The translations under genes were made by a program, and so were the position numbers. From Deltaproteobacteria bacterium (GTDB lineage: Bacteria; Chloroflexota; Dehalococcoidia; Dehalococcoidales; BS750m-G39), in assembly GCA_013202445.1 (NCBI GenBank), contig JABMRW010000087.1, forward strand, positions 1-37,721: a DNA stretch of 37,721 bases, given 5' to 3'. Within the stretch, counting starts at the first letter, position 1. Every line of letters begins with the position of its first letter. The notes beneath the pieces are model-generated. The model had not been told where the DNA came from, ran no database searches, and was given only the letters and a program-made list of their open reading frames with translations. Shown here one piece after another: positions 1 to 25,201 of this stretch.

Positions 1-84
1 AAGAAATTGATAGAAGTATCGCTTCTGTCGGGTGGGTCAGGGTGGGAAGTAAAACGCCCTCTAAAAACTAGCTAGTCCCGCCCC
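1..84 (+). repeat. Family-A intergenic repeat, copy A1 (short hairpin + G-tract + AAAAC..CTAAAAAC tail); may be cut by the window edge
   Basis: Nearly base-for-base match to 4134-4214 and 16542-16621 (aagaaattgatagaagta.c.cttctg...). Stem agaag/cttct at 12-26. GGGTGGGTCAGGGTGGG at 30-46. Confidence 0.8.
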
Positions 85-18142: not shown

Positions 18143-18514
18143 GTGTACCGGATATCGGTAGAGCAGCACTTTGACGCCGCCCACTATTTAAGGGGCTATC
18201 AGGGCAAGTGCGAGGCGATGCACGGCCACAGCTACAAGGTGGTGGTAAAGGTGGACGCCTCTGAACTTAACGATATCGGCCTGGCCTACGATTTCGTGGA
18301 GCTTAAAAAGCATTTAGCCGGGGTGATAGACCGCTTCGACCACACCTGCCTCAACGATGCCCCCCCCTTCGATAAGCTCAATCCCTCGGCGGAAAACATC
18401 GCCGCCGATATCTATAAAGAGCTTAAATCTAGGCTGGAGGGGGCGCCGGTCACCATCGCTAACGTAGAGGTGTGGGAATCCCCCCAGACCGGCGTCATCT
18501 ACACGCCGGATTAG
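18143..18514 (+). CDS. 6-pyruvoyl-tetrahydropterin synthase family protein (QueD / PTPS-III-like)
   Basis: 123 aa. Motif GKCEAMHGHSY carries both a Cys-x3-HGH and a Glu-x2-HGH arrangement. Sits directly downstream of folP-folK. Confidence 0.85.
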   Translation: MYRISVEQHFDAAHYLRGYQGKCEAMHGHSYKVVVKVDASELNDIGLAYDFVELKKHLAGVIDRFDHTCLNDAPPFDKLNPSAENIAADIYKELKSRLEGAPVTIANVEVWESPQTGVIYTPD

Positions 18515-18690
18515 GCGCGCTGCTCCGGCGGCAGCAGGTTGGGGATGCCGTTGGTGATGGGGTAGTCCACCCGGCAGTTGGGGCAGTTAAGGGAGCCGCT
18601 GATTATCTCCTCCTTCTCCTCGGCCACGGTTAGTTTCAGCTCACCCTTGCACACCGGGCAGGCAAGAATATCCATCAATTCTCTCTTCAT
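18511..18690 (-). CDS. Trm112-family small zinc-ribbon-like protein (59 aa; not in the ORF track)
   Basis: My translation of the minus strand: MKRELMDILACPVCKGELKLTVAEEKEEIISGSLNCPNCRVDYPITNGIPNLLPPEQRA. CPxC...CPxC plus the PI.NGIP.LL motif. 4-nt convergent overlap with the PTPS gene. Confidence 0.8.
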   Translation of the reverse strand: MKRELMDILACPVCKGELKLTVAEEKEEIISGSLNCPNCRVDYPITNGIPNLLPPEQRA

Positions 18691-18731
18691 GGGCTTTATT
18701 ATACCACTGAATCCCCTTTTTTACCCCACCC

Positions 18732-18810
18732 CTTTTTAAGTTTTATATTTCTTCCCATACCCACCCACCCAAAAGGTTTCACCTTTTTTCATATCTCTAA
18801 CCCCCACCCC
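18732..18810. repeat. 79-nt C-rich unit, near-identical paralog of 20982-21060
   Basis: ctttttaagttttatatttcttcccatacccacccacccaaaaggtttcacc... compared with the same string at 20982-21060, with a few substitutions or indels. Confidence 0.85.
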
Positions 18811-18897
18811 CGAAGTGAGGGACTAGGGTGCCAACCCCGGTAGGGTGGGAGGGTGGGAAGAACATCAACCGCTAAAAGGCTCTGTCCTAAGCCCCCC
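18811..18897 (+). repeat. Family-A intergenic repeat, copy A8
   Basis: Hairpin-like gagggactagggtgccaaccccgg, then GGGTGGGAGGGTGGG (18843-18857) and aagaacatcaaccgctaaaagg. Confidence 0.75.
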
Positions 18898-18991
18898 ATT
18901 TTTATCTTTTTCCACCCGACCCATCGTGGGGACGGTATTATTCACTAAAATATAGACGAAATGAGTACACAAAATTAGCACGATTCGGGGA

Positions 18992-19020
18992 TTGTAATTT
19001 GCTTAAGGGGGTACTAAAAT
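18992..19020 (+). promoter_or_regulatory. Candidate promoter TTGTAA-17 nt-TAAAAT for the first coiled-coil gene
   Basis: TTGTAA at 18992-18997 and TAAAAT at 19015-19020. A homologous arrangement occurs at 21236-21264. Confidence 0.4.
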
Positions 19021-19136
19021 ACTATAGCTAGATAGCCCGAATGGGCCATTGGAATTATATTTTGAGGCAATCGGCTGGGGATGCCCGGTTTTCCGTGCAT
19101 CTTAAAGCTGGTCTTACCGTTTGGAGTGCGAGTTAA

Positions 19137-20885
19137 ATGGCAAAGAAAGATACGGATAACTGGGAAACAGAAGAGCCGGGAAAACTTGTTGACGAATTCA
19201 AGCGCAGGCTTACCCGGGCTTTAGAAAAGGAAAGAGAGCGCCTGATCGGGGCGGCCAAGCAGCAGTCGGCGGAAATTATCCTCAACGCGCAGGAGGAAGC
19301 GGCCCAGCTTATTGAAAATGCCGTGCAGCAGGGAGAGAAGGAGGTGGAGGAGCACTCGGTCCGCATCATCACCGAAGCCGATGTCAAGGCAAAAGATATT
19401 AGGGAGGCCGCCCAAAAAGAAGCCCAGGAGGGAGCGGCCAACTACATGGTTGAGATGAGGCAGAAGGCCGACCTCATCGTGGCCGAGCTGAGAGAGAGCG
19501 CCAGAGAGGTGGTGGAGAAGCAGTCGGCGGCGGCTATCGCCAGGGCCAGGGAAGAAGCGGCGCGGATTATCAACGAGGCTGAAGATGAGGCCCGGAAACG
19601 GGCGCAGGAGGAGACCAAGCGGGAGGTAGAGTACATCACCGCTGCCGCCAGGGAGGAAGCGTCGGTAATTATTACCAGGGCGGAGCAGGAAGCGGCGGAA
19701 AAGGCAGCCGCGATGCTCGCCGAATGCGAAAAGCAGGCTCAGAAAGTCACCGCCGAGGCCATAGAAGGGGCTCAGGAGGCGGCCAAGCTGGAATTGACCA
19801 ATATTCTTAGCCGGGGGCGGGAGGAGGCGGCCCAGATTATCGAGGAAGCCAGGGAGCAGGCCAGGAAGGAAGCGGAGGGGAAAGCGGGCAGGATAATCAA
19901 TGAAGCCGAGCAGAAGGCGGAGCGGATTAACCAGGAGGCTACGGAGAGAGGACGGAAGCGGATAGATGTGGAGTCGGCCCGGGTCATTGACGAGGTAAAA
20001 TCTAAGGCGGAATGGGAGGCGGCTCAGGTTATCGCCGAAGCCAAGCAGAGGGCGTCGCAGATTATGAGCGAAGCCAGCGACTGGCTGCATGCCGAGGTCG
20101 GTAATCAGGCCAAGAAGGAAGCCCGGGACAAAGCCAGGAAAGAAGCGGAAACTATTATCGCCGAAGCTAAAGAGAAAGCTGCCGGCGTTATCGCCAGGGC
20201 GCAGCGGGATGCCGAGAGCAAGGCGGACAAGATAATCGCCAGTGCCAGGAAAGAAGCGTCCAAGGAGTCGGAGCAGCTTACCAGGCAGACCAGGGAGCAG
20301 TCGGATAAGGAAGCCGAAGCAAGGGCGGAAATGATAGTCGCCCAGGCCAGGCAGAAGGCAGAGCAGATTACCCAGGAGGCTACGGACAGAGGCCGGAGGC
20401 GGATAGAGGCGGAGTCTATACGGATTACCGCTGAGGCTAGGTCGAGGGCGGAGTGGGAAGCGGCGCGCATTATCGCCGAGGCCAAGCAGAGGGCGGTGCG
20501 GATTGTTACCGAAGCCAGCGATTGGTTAGAGGCGGAGGTCAAGACGCCGGCCAGCACTTTATCTGAACCCAGGACGGTCTACAAGAAAGCCGAACCCCAG
20601 GCTGAGAGCGCCGGTTCCGAAGGCGAAATAGGTGACGGGCTGTACCAGGGGATGATGGAGCTGGAGATACTATCCGCAGACCCCAAGCAGGTACCGGACT
20701 TCGTTTCACACTTACAGCAGGTCCCCGACCTGCAGGTGGTATCATTCAGGGGCTCGTCCAGCGGCGAAAGCATGGTGGTAGTGGTCATTAACCGCCCCCT
20801 CCCCCTGCCGGCCATTCTCAGGGAGATACCCTCGGTAGAGGAGGCAATTGGCAACGGGGGCAAGATTCAGGTAACGCTCAGGTAA
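19137..20885 (+). CDS. Large charged coiled-coil-rich protein (CCRP-1) with a conserved C-terminal globular domain; function unknown
   Basis: 582 aa with no signal peptide or TM segment. About 480 aa are Ala/Glu/Lys/Arg/Gln-rich with a recurring A-x-x-I-I-x-E-A-x-x-x-A motif. Contains a 189-nt internal duplication. The last ~85 aa are shared with 21592..23181. GGAG lies 10 nt upstream of the ATG. Confidence 0.85.
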   Translation: MAKKDTDNWETEEPGKLVDEFKRRLTRALEKERERLIGAAKQQSAEIILNAQEEAAQLIENAVQQGEKEVEEHSVRIITEADVKAKDIREAAQKEAQEGAANYMVEMRQKADLIVAELRESAREVVEKQSAAAIARAREEAARIINEAEDEARKRAQEETKREVEYITAAAREEASVIITRAEQEAAEKAAAMLAECEKQAQKVTAEAIEGAQEAAKLELTNILSRGREEAAQIIEEAREQARKEAEGKAGRIINEAEQKAERINQEATERGRKRIDVESARVIDEVKSKAEWEAAQVIAEAKQRASQIMSEASDWLHAEVGNQAKKEARDKARKEAETIIAEAKEKAAGVIARAQRDAESKADKIIASARKEASKESEQLTRQTREQSDKEAEARAEMIVAQARQKAEQITQEATDRGRRRIEAESIRITAEARSRAEWEAARIIAEAKQRAVRIVTEASDWLEAEVKTPASTLSEPRTVYKKAEPQAESAGSEGEIGDGLYQGMMELEILSADPKQVPDFVSHLQQVPDLQVVSFRGSSSGESMVVVVINRPLPLPAILREIPSVEEAIGNGGKIQVTLR

Positions 20886-20981
20886 TTTCAAATGGGGTAT
20901 TTCCCCCCTCTTCCAGCACAACTTTTTATTCCCAACCCGCCCTATAAGGGTTCCTCCATTTCTTATCCTTTTTCCTCCCCT

Positions 20982-21060
20982 CTTTTTAAGTTTTGTATTT
21001 CTTCCCATACCCACCCGCCCAAAAAGGTTTCACCTCTTTTCATCTCTTTAACCCCACCCC
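20982..21060. repeat. 79-nt C-rich unit, paralog of 18732-18810
   Basis: See 18732-18810. Embedded in a 420-nt C-rich non-coding spacer (20886-21305). Confidence 0.85.
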
Positions 21061-21235
21061 TTTTTAACCCGCCTCTTATTTTTGTTTTTCTCCGCCCCCC
21101 TTTATATTTCTGATTAAGGAAACCCCACCCCCCATTTTTAACAGCTCCCTTTTTCCCCTCGTAGGCTCCACCCTTCTTACCTTTTCCCCCCAAAATTAGT
21201 ACTAAAATACCACCATTACTAGCCAGATTGGGTGA

Positions 21236-21264
21236 TTGTATCTTGAGGAGAATGGGGGCATACT
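21236..21264 (+). promoter_or_regulatory. Candidate promoter TTGTAT-17 nt-CATACT for the HTH + second coiled-coil gene
   Basis: Aligns with 18992-19020: both are preceded by gggg.gattgta and both spacers end in ggggg. Confidence 0.3.
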
Positions 21265-21305
21265 CAGAAAAACGGGTAGATAATCAAGTTAGTTAGGGAG
21301 CATTA

Positions 21306-21560
21306 ATGGCTACTATTAGCAACGAAAAAGACACCAGACGCAAAGGAAATAACAACGGTGACAGACTACCCGCCAGGCTGCTGGCCGTAGGCGAGGTGGC
21401 CCATTTCCTGGGTGTTCACACCAGCACGGTCAGGCGGTGGGAGAAGAAAGGCCTGCTAAAGTCCTATGCTATCGGGCTTCGGCGCAGCCTCAGGTTCAAA
21501 CAGGAAGACGTTCTCAGTTTTCTCAATAAGTCCCGAAAAAACACTATCGGTGCTACTTAG
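21306..21560 (+). CDS. Excisionase/MerR-superfamily helix-turn-helix DNA-binding protein
   Basis: 84 aa. LLAVGEVAHFLGVHTSTVRRWEKKGLL is a typical HTH_17-type motif. Sits 31 nt upstream of CCRP-2, so is probably co-transcribed. Confidence 0.75.
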   Translation: MATISNEKDTRRKGNNNGDRLPARLLAVGEVAHFLGVHTSTVRRWEKKGLLKSYAIGLRRSLRFKQEDVLSFLNKSRKNTIGAT

Positions 21561-21591
21561 AGGGAATTGAATCACGAGGGGGAAGATCTAG

Positions 21592-23181
21592 ATGAAAAAT
21601 CAAAACAATGGCAAACAGGAACTAGAAGAGCTAGGCGAGGTCTTTGACCAGTTCCGGCGCAAGCTCCCCGAGCTTATCAAGCAGGAACAAACAAGGTTGA
21701 CCGAGGGAGCCAGGCAGGAATCGGCCGGCATCATTAACCGGGCCAGGGAAGAGGCGGCCGGGGTTGTTGGAACGGCCCTGGCGCAGGCCAAGAAGGAAAC
21801 AGAAGCGGAATCAGCCCGCATTATCGCCGAAGCCGAAGCCAAGGCAAAGGAAGCAGAAGCGGAATCAGCCCGCGCTATCGCCGAAGCCGAAGCCAAGGCA
21901 AAAGAGATTAATGAAACCGCCAAAGCGGAAGCCAAGGAGGAAGCCGCCGGCTATCTGGACGGAGTAAGGCAGAAAGCCGAGCTGATAGTCGAGGAGCTAA
22001 AGAACAACGCCAGGAGGGCGGCGGTGACAGAGACGGCGGCGGTGGTTACCCGGGCCAGGGAAGAGGCGGAGCAGATTATCAACCAGGCCGAGGATAGGGT
22101 TAAGAAGGAAGCTCGGGAAAAGATAAGACCGGAGATGGAACGCATTATTTCCGAAGCCAGGGAGGAGGCGGCGCTAATCGTGAACAAGGCGGAGAAGGAT
22201 GCGCAAAACAAGGCCGATAAAGCAATCGCTAAATCTCGGAAAGAGAGCGATAAGATAACTCGCGATGCGGTGGAGAAGGCGCGGAAGGAAGCCGAGGAGA
22301 TAAGCCGCTCGGCCGCCGAGATGCAAAAGCAGGCGGAGCGGGAGCTTAAGGAAGCTACAGACAAGGCCGGGAAGGAAGCGGAGGCAATTCTCAAAGAAGC
22401 CAAAGAGAAGGGCAAGAAAGAGGCGGAGGAAAAGCTGGCCGAGATAGCCGCTCAGGCCAAAGAAAAGCAAGAGCAGATTAGCCGCCAGGCCGAGCAGAAG
22501 GCAATGAAGAAGGTAGAGTCGGAGTCGGCCAAAGCCATGGCCGAAGCCAGGGCGAAGGCGGAATGGGAGGCGGCTCAGATTATAGCCGAAGCCAGAAAAA
22601 AGGCGGAGGAGATTATTTCAGAAGCCGTAAAGCGGCTGGAGAAGGAGCCCGCCCCACCGGTTATGGCCGGGGCACGTCCGGAACCCGTGGAATTTGCGCC
22701 GGCGGTAGCCAGGGCAATGCCGGAGGAAGAGTCGCTGGATAAGTTAGTCAGGGAAAGGCTGGAATTCCGGGCGCAGTTAAGGCCGGAAACCGGCGAGCCC
22801 GCCCCGCAGGCGGTGGCGACGGTGCCGGAGGTACAGCCGGCGGCTGAGGAAGCTGAGGAGAAGCCCGAACCTCAGGCCGAAGAAAAAACGGAAGCGGCTT
22901 CCAGCAACGGAGATGGCGATGGGCTTTACCGGGGGATGCTGGAGCTGGATGTAACCTCAGAGGATGCCAAGCAGATACCCGTTTTCCTGTCGCAGCTACA
23001 GCAGCTTCCCAACCTGCAGGTGGTGTCATTCAAGGGTTTACCCGGTGGCAACAGCCTGATTGTTCTGGCCATTAGCCATCCCCTGCCCCTGCCGGACATT
23101 ATCAAAAGGATGCCGCCGGTAGAGTCGGCGGTGGCTAAAGACAACGGGGTTAACGTGGTATTAAAGGCGCTTGCCTTTTGA
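21592..23181 (+). CDS. Large charged coiled-coil-rich protein (CCRP-2), paralog of 19137..20885
   Basis: 529 aa. Homologous N-terminus (VFDQFRRKL vs LVDEFKRRL), mid region (RQKAELIVEELK vs RQKADLIVAELR) and KAEWEAAQIIAEA motif. Pro/Glu-rich linker. The C-terminal domain is identical to CCRP-1 at 43 of 84 hand-aligned positions. Confidence 0.85.
   Translation: MKNQNNGKQELEELGEVFDQFRRKLPELIKQEQTRLTEGARQESAGIINRAREEAAGVVGTALAQAKKETEAESARIIAEAEAKAKEAEAESARAIAEAEAKAKEINETAKAEAKEEAAGYLDGVRQKAELIVEELKNNARRAAVTETAAVVTRAREEAEQIINQAEDRVKKEAREKIRPEMERIISEAREEAALIVNKAEKDAQNKADKAIAKSRKESDKITRDAVEKARKEAEEISRSAAEMQKQAERELKEATDKAGKEAEAILKEAKEKGKKEAEEKLAEIAAQAKEKQEQISRQAEQKAMKKVESESAKAMAEARAKAEWEAAQIIAEARKKAEEIISEAVKRLEKEPAPPVMAGARPEPVEFAPAVARAMPEEESLDKLVRERLEFRAQLRPETGEPAPQAVATVPEVQPAAEEAEEKPEPQAEEKTEAASSNGDGDGLYRGMLELDVTSEDAKQIPVFLSQLQQLPNLQVVSFKGLPGGNSLIVLAISHPLPLPDIIKRMPPVESAVAKDNGVNVVLKALAF
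21800..21907 (+). repeat. 54-nt tandem duplication (x2) inside CCRP-2
   Basis: Unit cagaagcggaatcagcccgc.. occurs at 21800-21853 and 21854-21907, differing at a handful of positions. Encodes EAESAR(I/A)IAEAEAKAKE twice. Confidence 0.9.
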
Positions 23182-23205
23182 TGCCCACCCCCTTAAGCCA
23201 GTTCA

Positions 23206-23240
23206 GGGCTGGACTCGGTTAGAGTCCGGCCCTTATTTTA
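23206..23240. terminator. Bidirectional intrinsic terminator between convergent CCRP-2 and tctB
   Basis: Stem gggctggactc / gagtccggccc (one mismatch) with loop ggtta, followed by ttatttta. Confidence 0.65.
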
Positions 23241-23245
23241 TGGCT

Positions 23246-23707
23246 TTAGTGGGCGCCGAAGATTAACCCCTTATACAGCGGGACCTTCAGCCCGATAGCA
23301 AAAACGGCGTAGCTAAAAACAAGCAGGCCAACGGCAAAAATTACGGCAACAAGCCAGCCTCTTCGCCGCCACTTCAGGTAAGCAAAGGCAAAAGTCGGGA
23401 TGGCGATATAAAAACCAAACAGGTAGATAGCCAGGCAGAAGCCGGCCGCCCAGCCGAATATCAAACCCAGCCTTCGGGTCTCGGCTTTAGCCCCGCTATC
23501 TTCAGCCGTCGCTTTGGCGGCAGCCGCCTCCCCCCGCCGCCGCAGCTCTCTAACCACCTGCACCGCCGCCAGGATAAAGATGATAATGCTTATCCCCAGG
23601 GGCAGCACCATAGATTCCCAGTAGCGGAAGGTCAGGGACTGGATAATGCCAAACAGCCCCAGCGCCAGGAAAAACAAGGCCACCCAAAAACTGCCCTTAA
23701 GCTTCAC
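23246..23707 (-). CDS. tctB: Tripartite tricarboxylate transporter small membrane subunit TctB
   Basis: 153 aa with 4 hydrophobic segments. 4-nt overlap with the tctA 3' end. Operon context with tctA and tctC. Confidence 0.75.
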   Translation of the reverse strand: MKLKGSFWVALFFLALGLFGIIQSLTFRYWESMVLPLGISIIIFILAAVQVVRELRRRGEAAAAKATAEDSGAKAETRRLGLIFGWAAGFCLAIYLFGFYIAIPTFAFAYLKWRRRGWLVAVIFAVGLLVFSYAVFAIGLKVPLYKGLIFGAH

Positions 23708-25201
23708 GGCTGGCTAAACCTCCTCCGCAGGTTGTTTATGCCCCGCTTCAGGTGGGGATAGCTCAGCAGCAGAGCCATAATAACCAGCAGGGTCAGGGGT
23801 ATAGGCCGGGCAAAGAATAACGGCCCGTAAATCTTAATGGAAAGAAGTGAATAATTCTCAAAAAGGCCGCCCAGAACAAAGCCCAGCAGCAGCGCCGGGC
23901 GGGAGTAGCCATATAGCTTCATTAGCAAGCCGAGTATCCCAAAAATTAAAACGGTGATGAAATTCATTGGGGACAGGGTAGCTACATAAACCCCGACCAA
24001 GGCTATGCTTAGAATACCCGGGAACAGAAAGTCCAGGTTGACCGAAGCCACTCTAACCAGATGAGGGGCAGCGAAGAGACAGATAATACCGCCGACGATA
24101 TTGGCCAGGGCTATGCCCAGGAGCAGGGTCAAAGCCAGGGGCAGGTGTTCCACCATCATTCTCGGACCGGGGGTAACCCCCACCATCAGAAAAGCGGCCA
24201 GGAAGAGGGCCATGATGGCGCTCCCCGGGATGCCCAGGGCCATGGTGGTCAGCAGTGAGCCAGCCTCCTTGGCGTTATTAGCCGCCTCCGGGGCAATTAC
24301 CCCCTCCACCATGCCGGTGCCGAACTTCTCCGGGTGTTTCGAGGTCTGCTTGGCCTGCCCGTAGCACACCCAGGTGGCCACCTCGGCGCCAACGCCCGGA
24401 ATTATGCCGATGATATAACCAATAACGGTACTGCGGAACCACAGCCAGCGGTGCCGCCATACATCCTTTACCCCCACCAGTATATCGGATAACCGAGTGG
24501 TGCCTGCTTTGGGGGCGATAGCCGTGCGCCCTCTCATAACCAGATGAAACAACTCGGATAAGCCAAACAGACCCAGAGCGATGGGGATAAGCTCAATACC
24601 GTCGTAGAGGAAGGTGGCGTTGAAGTCGAAACGGTGGACCCCGGTTATTGAGTGGTAGCCGATGAAAGAGATTAGCAGCCCCAGCATGCCGGCGATAATA
24701 CCCTTGATGGCCGAGCCGCCGGTCAGCGCCGCCAGGAACGATATCCCCAGCAGTATCAGGATAGCCATCTCCGGCTGCCCAAAGACCATTATTATGGGCA
24801 TTACCAAGGGCACCATGGCCAGGGCCAGGAACGCGGGCAATACCCCTCCCGCCATAGAGCTGGTAACGGCGGCACCGATAGCCCTTCCCCCCTCACCCCC
24901 TCTGGGTCATGGGAAAGCCGTCGAGCATGGTGGCTGCGTTAGGCCCCGTCCCCGGTATATTCAGCAATATGGAGGATATACTGCCGCCGGTAAAGACCAC
25001 GGCGTGAAAGGCAATTAATAAAATAAGGGCGACCTCGGTGGGCATGTGGAAAATGAAGGGCAGAAGCAGGGGCAGCATAACCAGTCCGCTGATTCCGGGG
25101 ATAACGCCTATGATTAGGCCGACGAAAACAGCAACAAACAGTATCAGCAGGTTTATCGGCTGAAACAGTGTGGCTAGAGCTGCTCCGTATGCCTCAAACA
25201 C
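23704..25201 (-). pseudogene. tctA: TctA large permease interrupted by a +1 frameshift in a G5 (plus-strand C5) homopolymer
   Basis: The 102-aa N-terminal piece (24893-25201) ends ...DGFPMTQRG*. The +1 frame continues GEGGRAIGAAVTSSMAGGVL.. into the 383-aa piece (23704-24855). Removing one C from ccccc at 24896-24900 restores MTQRGEGGRAIGAA. Confidence 0.8.

Follow-up and report, generated by a model that had tools for sequence, protein, structure and literature searches.

The locus described here raises a simple question: what kind of system is encoded by two neighboring, same-strand genes for very long coiled-coil proteins with a small helix-turn-helix (HTH) gene between them? The rod genes, which we call P1 and P2, lie in a 37,721-nucleotide (nt) stretch of DNA (assembly GCA_013202445.1, contig JABMRW010000087.1), referred to below as the window. 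An earlier, sequence-only reading of this DNA had taken the two proteins for a paralogous pair of cytoskeletal, scaffold or polar-organiser type with a private C-terminal domain. The homology searches reported here indicate that P1 and P2 belong to an undescribed, widespread protein family that seems to be one of Chloroflexota. Of the roles considered, that of a scaffold or tether is still the most plausible. We hold with moderate confidence that the system is a cytoplasmic tether or scaffold in which the C-terminal domain would dock to a partner or oligomerise and the HTH protein would act as a regulator or DNA anchor.

The open reading frames (ORFs) of P1 and P2, the position of the HTH gene and the 31-nt gap between its stop and the start of P2 were recovered as previously read, as were the rod, the Pro/Glu/Ala-rich linker and the small globular head in each protein (Table 1). 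BLASTP aligns P1 with P2 in the N-terminus, in the rod and in the C-terminal domain alike (1e-47 and 2e-45), which identifies them as paralogs at the sequence level. The absence of transmembrane or signal-like segments from both proteins was also borne out; the maximum Kyte-Doolittle mean over 19 residues is 1.3 and falls inside the C-terminal domain. Both genes are under purifying selection and are thus real coding genes. In comparisons with orthologs, the ratio of nonsynonymous to synonymous substitution rates (dN/dS) was 0.19-0.40 overall for P1 and P2 at a dS of about 0.5, and 0.07-0.20 for the C-terminal domain of P1 with orthologs at a dS of at least about 0.5. The weakest constraint falls on the linkers, and P2 orthologs range in length from 488 to 613 amino acids (aa).

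The C-terminal domains of P1 and P2, each of about 87 residues, are 51% identical, matching the 43 of 84 positions counted earlier in a hand alignment. Word-indexed homolog searches yielded almost nothing (one match with the domain, a near-identical fragment, and two with full-length P1), so an exhaustive HMMER search of 1.84 billion representatives of clusters at 50% identity was needed. This search returned 237 representatives at E<=1e-3, 17 of them at E<=1e-10. The domain is found in at least 237 such clusters, behind several N-terminal architectures, and the view that it is private to this pair had to be abandoned. It almost always lies at the very end of the protein, where a median of 4 residues follow it, and it fits the profile LYxGxVxLxI ... 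GGS ... PLPLxxIL.EMPxVE ... IxVxLK, which both P1 and P2 match (E values in Table 1 are from a 60-sequence profile).

The companion claim, that the domain belongs to no characterised family, is supported by sequence and structure searches. No match was found in Pfam, NCBIfam or PDB sequences with single sequences or with profiles of 30-60 sequences. A confident AlphaFold2 (AF2) model from a 60-sequence alignment (predicted local distance difference test score 85.7, predicted template modelling score 0.74) shows a β-α-β-β-α-β-β topology. The best Foldseek match of this model in the PDB has E=0.1 and a template modelling (TM) score below 0.5, and nothing significant was found among the viral folds of BFVD. 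An AF2 model from a shallow alignment had matched a ribosomal S6 permutant, HPPK and bacterial microcompartment (BMC) shell proteins (TM about 0.6, E about 4e-4), and these matches were rejected as non-specific. Because the ferredoxin-like matches vanish with the better model, no relationship to BMC, S6 or ACT proteins is claimed. Only G, L, P and V occupy the columns that are invariant or nearly so (LYxG..L, PxPL, V), and the conservation looks structural rather than catalytic. We propose the domain as a candidate new Pfam domain family.

The 84-aa protein encoded between P1 and P2 matches Pfam HTH_17 (PF12728; 41.3 bits, cutoff 27) and the excisionase-family model TIGR01764 (35.7 bits, cutoff 28.8). 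Its type had been read correctly, but its description as an embedded gene, in effect a bystander, did not survive comparison with related loci. A metagenome scan yielded 51 loci, in which ORFs were called and then searched with the C-domain and HTH profiles. Every P2-type gene in these loci is preceded directly by an HTH gene on the same strand at a gap of 0-31 nt; over P2-type genes and single-copy long forms together the gap is 0-61 nt, again on the same strand. Single-copy long forms with an HTH gene upstream have C-domains 63-71% (L042-L044), 52% (L050) and 36-41% (L061-L064) identical to that of P1, and an independent look-up of a further locus, L068, placed an HTH gene 258 nt upstream of the rod gene. 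When neighborhoods from 16 lineages were compared all against all, only the rod gene and the HTH gene recurred, the latter in 13 of the 16. Even next to partner C-domains that are only about 40% identical, the HTH core (LLAVGEVAHFLGVHSSTVRRWEKKGLLKSYAIGLRxSLRFKQEDVLSFL) hardly varies, and conservation of the HTH protein exceeds that of the rod protein. The core is preceded by an N-terminal extension that is also conserved (ISNEK..EY..NKLPARLL). The ancestral unit is an operon of two genes, with the HTH_17 protein followed by the rod protein.

Conservation of the pair together with the HTH gene, which the sequence-only reading had put forward as a check, extends to the whole P1-HTH-P2 order. 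At least 14 related contigs, 79-96% identical in nucleotide sequence, keep this order, with synteny from folP-folK-PTPS upstream to an energy-coupling factor (ECF) transporter downstream. A scan of genome contigs with the family alignment found a single near-identical metagenome-assembled genome (MAG), L001. The excisionase-type HTH could in principle mark P1 and P2 as mobile-element or phage cargo: it matches excisionase families in TIGRFAM, PHROGs and PADLOC (mad1), the intergenic regions on either side are hot spots for insertion in relatives, and contigs L018 and L019 carry a P1-type gene in another setting. On the other hand, there is no integrase, transposase, att-like repeat or tRNA at the locus, synteny with the folP-folK-PTPS and ECF genes is stable, P1 and P2 themselves have no PHROG or PADLOC match, and a viral-contig scan was negative. 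Rfam and tRNA scans of the window were empty. The highly charged composition would also suit a protective amphipathic-helix protein resembling phasins or late embryogenesis abundant (LEA) proteins, but the 11-mer repeats of LEA proteins and apolipoproteins fit poorly with the 3.75-residue period described below, the Ala/Ile core positions and the folded, conserved C-domain. We consider cargo or protective proteins of these kinds highly improbable. A functional excisionase was rejected, given the lack of an integrase, tRNA or flanking direct repeat and the synteny among the related contigs.

The coupling of an HTH gene to a rod gene also resembles a split version of the RacA tether. RacA of B. 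subtilis, in which a MerR-like HTH is joined to a coiled coil that docks on DivIVA, shows that such a combination can tether DNA. By analogy, the HTH_17 protein would bind the chromosome or nucleoid and the rod would anchor to a cellular landmark through the C-domain. Co-encoding of the two proteins is consistent with this arrangement, as is a degree of HTH conservation that exceeds that of typical local regulators, and the conserved N-terminal extension could be an interaction peptide. Autoregulation, however, is the simplest reading of a small HTH protein heading an operon, P1 and several lineages lack the HTH gene, and no par or smc genes are found nearby. A RacA-like tether is therefore an unlikely explanation in our assessment.

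The rods themselves are unusually regular. The recurring Ala/hydrophobic helix motif noticed in the sequence-only reading, of the type A-x-x-[IVLM]-[IVLMT]-x-x-A, is present in 14 copies in P1 and 5 in P2, while shuffled sequences average 0.3-0.4 copies with a maximum of 3. Proline is absent from the 455 rod residues of P1. The positions of hydrophobic residues plus Ala were subjected to Fourier analysis with shuffled sequences as the control. The P1 rod gave one dominant peak at a period of 3.75 (15/4) with a power of 9.15, compared to 0.8 at 3.5, 0.46 at 11/3 and 0.12 at 51/14. The P2 rod peaks at 3.72, and 23 of 24 other long forms peak at 3.69-3.75 (the remaining one, P0054, at 3.58); the observed power was never attained by shuffles. 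Periods of 7/2, 11/3 and 15/4 are conventionally judged against 3.63 residues per turn (PMC9858780). The period of 3.72-3.75 therefore predicts a right-handed coiled coil of pentadecads and hendecads, and the question of heptad or hendecad register is answered by a pentadecad/hendecad mix rather than by heptads.

The rod sequence is also conserved at both ends. An N-terminal segment, (E)xxxIIDEYxQRIxQAIEKExxxLxExAEQES.., is common to 29 long forms at a conserved position, and a rod-end motif read from the sequences, AEWEAAQIIAEAKQRA, is common to several family members. Both P1 and P2 carry the N-terminal segment, a helical stretch of about 45 aa. Across the family it is followed by an almost Pro-free rod of 200-450 residues, rich in Ala, Glu, Lys and Arg and with a hydrophobic period of 3.70-3.75, and then by a disordered linker and the C-terminal domain. 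The final 147 residues of the P1 rod are duplicated, with an identity autocorrelation peak at lag 147, and the first copy (19822-20112) is 64% identical to 22373-22663 of P2. If the helix is continuous, the rods would measure about 68 nm in P1 and about 50 nm in P2. They would rank among the longest natural stretches with near-pentadecad periodicity, which is relevant to coiled-coil structural biology and protein design.

Automated annotation was expected to call such rods ATP-synthase b/E/H-like or DivIVA-like, and the Pfam and NCBIfam matches and the names given by JGI agree with this expectation: homologs are called "vacuolar-type H+-ATPase subunit H/E" or "ATP synthase subunit b". The rod scores 29.1 bits with Pfam ATP-synt_B (cutoff 28). 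P1 reaches 70.1 bits with AhaH (TIGR02926, cutoff 48.5) by summing 6 partial stretches of the 85-position model, while P2 stays below the cutoff at 26.7 bits. Models of V-ATPase subunit E, FliH and SctL gave 10-38 bits against cutoffs of 79-280, with coil segments only aligned. Among the DivIVA-type models, P1 scored 23.6 bits with Pfam DivIVA (cutoff 28), 23.4 with the NCBIfam Scy model (cutoff 1040) and 37.8 with Wag31 (cutoff 260); P2 has no DivIVA match and scored 20.1 and 17.8 bits with Scy and Wag31, respectively.

These weak matches, and a newer Pfam "Scy" model (PF28068) precomputed on the homologs P0030, P0077 and P0130, would be expected if P1 and P2 were true polarisome proteins of the Scy/FilP/DivIVA family. 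Scy/FilP rods are reportedly built on a 51-residue periodicity (about 3.64), which Walshaw and colleagues are said to have described in 2010; the power of P1 at this period (51/14) is negligible next to its peak at 3.75. DivIVA-like proteins are defined by an N-terminal RGYDxxEVD motif followed by a heptad coiled coil (PMC9858780), and a regular-expression search found this motif in neither P1 nor P2. Scy, FilP and DivIVA also lack a C-terminal domain of the P1/P2 type. With the defining motif, the scores and the periodicity all failing, membership in this family is largely refuted and we regard it as very unlikely.

Besides the long forms, the C-domain occurs in short forms and fused to other domains (Table 1). 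Short forms adjoin operons that include HTH_17, a GerE-type response regulator, an ATPase of the type II secretion system (T2SS) family (T2SSE with MshEN), T2SSF and pilin-like genes. The HTH_17 gene of these loci is divergently oriented, belongs to another subgroup (IGxRGDRRF) and heads the pilus operon. One family member, the 626-aa ENA metagenome protein P0097, has HD-GYP, MshEN and a Lys/Glu (K/E)-rich stretch fused to the C-domain. HD-GYP is a cyclic di-GMP (c-di-GMP) phosphodiesterase-type HD domain, and MshEN is the c-di-GMP-binding domain of pilus/T2SS ATPases. This fusion hints that the C-domain may target proteins to a common site. A large TIG/Big-domain protein was also observed flanking the short-form pilus loci L007, L010 and L012.

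Given these associations, the rod could be an analogue of a stator or peripheral stalk, in which an ATPase or motor, such as an ATPase of the type IV pilus/T2SS type, would be fastened to a membrane platform by a right-handed coiled coil. The rod matches the AhaH, V-ATPase E N-terminal, ATP-synt_B, FliH and HrpE/YscL models, its periodicity is non-heptad and of the right-handed type, and a rod with a C-terminal α/β head resembles subunit E and FliH in outline. The genomic context does not follow. No ATPase gene is encoded within the 37.7-kb window, as had been noted earlier, no ATPase subunit was found in the window or in related loci, and the window and most long-form loci are also free of ATPase, type III secretion system (T3SS) and pilus genes. 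Any stalk subunit is shorter than the rods, which exceed it 3-5 times in length, and full-length scores for subunit E, FliH and SctL fall far below their cutoffs. The C-domain resembles no stalk-subunit head by sequence or fold: its profile matches no such PDB chain, and none was among the 50 listed Foldseek matches. A stator role for P1 and P2 is improbable on this evidence, and the naming of such rod genes as ATPase stalk subunits is a systematic mis-annotation that the present finding corrects.

In the scaffold or tether reading that we prefer, the rod would assemble in the cytoplasm as a coiled-coil dimer or oligomer, right-handed or almost straight and about 50-70 nm long, and would serve as a spacer or scaffold. 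The C-domain would be a docking or oligomerisation module on a flexible leash; the domain has no conserved catalytic-type residues and is reused behind a Zn-ribbon, a transmembrane segment, HD-GYP/MshEN and short charged N-termini. The HTH protein would control transcription of the operon as its cognate regulator, or it might be a partner that anchors the system to DNA.

Several observations weigh against this reading or suggest that it is too general. The rod could instead fold back into helical bundles. No HTH gene precedes P1, and three long-form lineages, L011, L013/L067 (Dehalococcoidales) and L065, have no adjacent HTH gene, so the link between HTH and rod is frequent and not obligatory. 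The short forms beside type IV pilus operons hint at a role more specific than that of a generic scaffold. A similar hint comes from L018 and L019 (2359-10273), where a P1-type gene with 93% nucleotide identity to that of the window, over the gene body only, lies in an unrelated context downstream of a camelysin/TasA-like Peptidase_M73 gene, an S26 (SipW-like) signal peptidase gene, DUF5305 and a 193-aa ORF that has three HTH motifs and ends in HTH_17. No P2-type gene was found within 9 kb downstream. This arrangement suggests relocation or transfer of the P1-type gene and a possible link to surface-fibre operons.

A bolder version of the scaffold reading would see in these genes a lineage-specific HTH-rod module, seemingly of Chloroflexota, in which exceptionally long, right-handed pentadecad rods form cytoskeletal or tethering struts or filaments, the C-domain positions them as a novel docking domain, the dedicated HTH protein couples them to the chromosome, and P1 and P2 act as a specialised hetero-pair. 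Such a module could, for example, be an organiser of the nucleoid, or of surface appendages such as pili and TasA-like fibres at their bases. We put this forward as a speculative and rather doubtful extension. Chloroflexota, including Dehalococcoidia, are abundant in sediments and their cell biology is almost unknown, and the HTH-rod operon is a concrete candidate for a cell-organisation system in this phylum. A search of the literature on coiled-coil, HTH or DivIVA proteins of Dehalococcoidia/Dehalococcoides found nothing relevant.

The taxonomic label of the window bears on the phylum assignment. Proteins of the window MAG are labelled "Deltaproteobacteria bacterium" at NCBI (NQT31625.1), as are those of its relative L001 (CSMAG_1231). 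This label is doubtful because all other taxon-labelled homologs of the rod family are from Chloroflexota, Dehalococcoidia or Dehalococcoidales.

A 93-nt block before P1 is repeated before the HTH-P2 operon, and the copies are 88% identical (blastn 9e-29). A GATTGTA...CATACT element before the HTH gene resembles, by eye, the candidate promoter of P1; both this likeness and the consensus scan behind the promoter candidate are weak evidence. A tblastn search found no HTH gene remnant upstream of P1. The single-copy relatives L042-L044 carry the HTH gene, yet they are closer to P1 than to P2. Either the whole HTH-plus-rod module was duplicated and the first HTH gene lost, or P2 diverged rapidly after duplication; the sequences are compatible with both. 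Tandem modules are also found in L069 (1900-6685), a Chloroflexota contig with two HTH-plus-rod modules. Its first rod, of 327 aa, has the family N-terminal segment and the rod-end motif and stops before any C-domain, and its second is split into ORFs of 118 and 287 aa, followed by coiled-coil ORFs of 154 and 224 aa.

The intergenic regions 18690-19136 and 20886-21305 stand out by their unusual length and C/T-richness and contain repeated CCCCACCCCTTTTTAA-like motifs. The insertions that they carry in relatives measure 1.4-2.7 kb and include a 713-aa ORF in L001, and many metagenome contigs end within the intergenic regions flanking P1. In three lineages, L011 (4971-5381), L043 (11089-11487) and L044 (2259-2657), the long-form gene has downstream of it a conserved ORF of 132-136 aa that matches no Pfam model and possibly encodes a membrane protein; the window showed no homolog of it within 8 kb.

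The window otherwise encodes tricarboxylic acid cycle enzymes, a carboxylase, folP-folK-PTPS, a Trm112-like protein, TctABC, an ECF transporter and similar functions. The small Trm112-like zinc-ribbon ORF (18513-18690, minus strand), which separates PTPS from the region upstream of P1, is below the threshold of the ORF list; it was recognised by eye and is matched by PF03966 in the identical contig L002. Segment 23242-27940, which encodes TctB, TctA, TctC and a 528-aa ORF lacking any Pfam match, is confined to the window, L014, L032 and L033. Most related contigs have P2 followed immediately by the ECF transporter genes (those from 27941 onward in the window), and the segment is thus read as an insertion/deletion polymorphism in this genus-level group. 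TctA is spread over two minus-strand ORFs, 24893-25201 (102 aa, the N-terminal part) and 23704-24855 (383 aa, TctA profile positions 101-423). This split, also called in L014, could reflect a frameshift or a pseudogene, or the gene may truly be in two parts.

Table 1. Features of the P1-HTH-P2 locus and of related C-domain proteins (window positions unless a contig or aa is given).
Feature	Position	Strand	Remarks
Upstream block, copy 1	18719..18810	.	C/T-rich region before P1
Sigma-70-like promoter candidate for P1	18992..19020	+	TTGTAA-17-TAAAAT; consensus scan only
P1	19137..20885	+	582 aa; long-form family member; ORF call
P1 conserved N-terminal segment	aa about 15-60	+	
P1 Pro-free helical rod	to aa about 470	+	
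P1 rod internal duplication, copy 1	19822..20112	+	ends in rod-end motif AEWEAAQ(V/I)IAEAKQRA; offset 147 aa
P1 rod internal duplication, copy 2	20263..20553	+	72% identical to copy 1
P1 linker	aa 471-497, 20547-20627	+	Pro/Glu/Ala-rich
P1 C-terminal α/β domain	aa 498-582, 20628-20882	+	profile E=3e-31; β-α-β-β-α-β-β; conserved PLPL motif
Upstream block, copy 2	20969..21060	.	before HTH-P2 operon
HTH_17 (MerR/excisionase-type) DNA-binding protein gene	21306..21560	+	84 aa; operon partner of long-form rod genes
P2	21592..23181	+	529 aa; long-form family member; ORF call
P2 rod	to aa about 350	+	
P2 linker	aa 351-442, 22642-22917	+	Pro/Glu/Ala (PEA)-rich
P2 C-terminal domain	aa 443-529, 22918-23178	+	profile E=2e-27
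Terminator-like hairpin	23205..23233	+	strong; T-run behind a 12 bp stem; follows P2, which converges with tctB
Architecture with C-domain: long form			like P1/P2
Architecture with C-domain: short forms			80-200 aa; K/E-rich stretch before domain
Architecture with C-domain: Zn-ribbon (DUF7575)			then K/E stretch
Architecture with C-domain: N-terminal transmembrane segment			read from sequence; then K/E stretch
Architecture with C-domain: HD-GYP + MshEN			then K/E stretch
Short-form loci beside pilus operon	L007 1-8372; L010 1458-6190; L012 963-2918		

Among characterised proteins, the closest profile similarity of the rod is to subunits E and G/H (AhaH) of A/V-type ATPases, subunit b of F-type ATPases, and FliH/SctL. 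The rod shares with the A/V-ATPase stalk an Ala-rich, non-heptad coil of the right-handed type, and shares with subunit E and FliH a long helix followed by a small C-terminal α/β head. Stalk subunits differ in having a coil of about 80-120 residues, versus rods of 335-455 residues in P2 and P1, and a total size of about 85-200 aa, versus 529 and 582 aa. P1 and P2 also lack the transmembrane helix of subunit b, and carry a PEA linker and an HTH operon partner in place of an ATPase or T3SS operon. The short-form relatives from Chloroflexota metagenome contigs share the C-domain (about 40% identity) and an HTH_17 neighbor. They differ in their small size, with only a K/E-rich segment before the domain, and their pilus operon, with response regulator, PilB-like, PilC-like and pilin genes, has no counterpart in the window.

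The 84-aa protein resembles BldC and Xis in being a stand-alone MerR-type HTH without an effector domain. It scores 27.1 bits with the BldC model (NF033787) against a cutoff of 77, and is set apart from both by its IGLRxSLRF signature, its conserved N-terminal extension and the lack of a recombinase context. In RacA the HTH and the coil are part of one protein, whereas at the P2 locus they are separate polypeptides. Scy, FilP and DivIVA, the polar scaffolds of actinobacteria and firmicutes, are long, Ala-rich, non-heptad cytoplasmic coiled coils and plausible functional analogues of P1 and P2 as scaffolds. Rods of the Scy/FilP type have been assigned a hendecad (3.67) periodicity (PMC9858780). 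At 3.64 or 3.67, their period differs from the 3.72-3.75 of P1 and P2, and they come from a different phylum. The P1/P2 family stands apart from Scy, FilP and DivIVA by its unique C-terminal α/β domain and its HTH operon.

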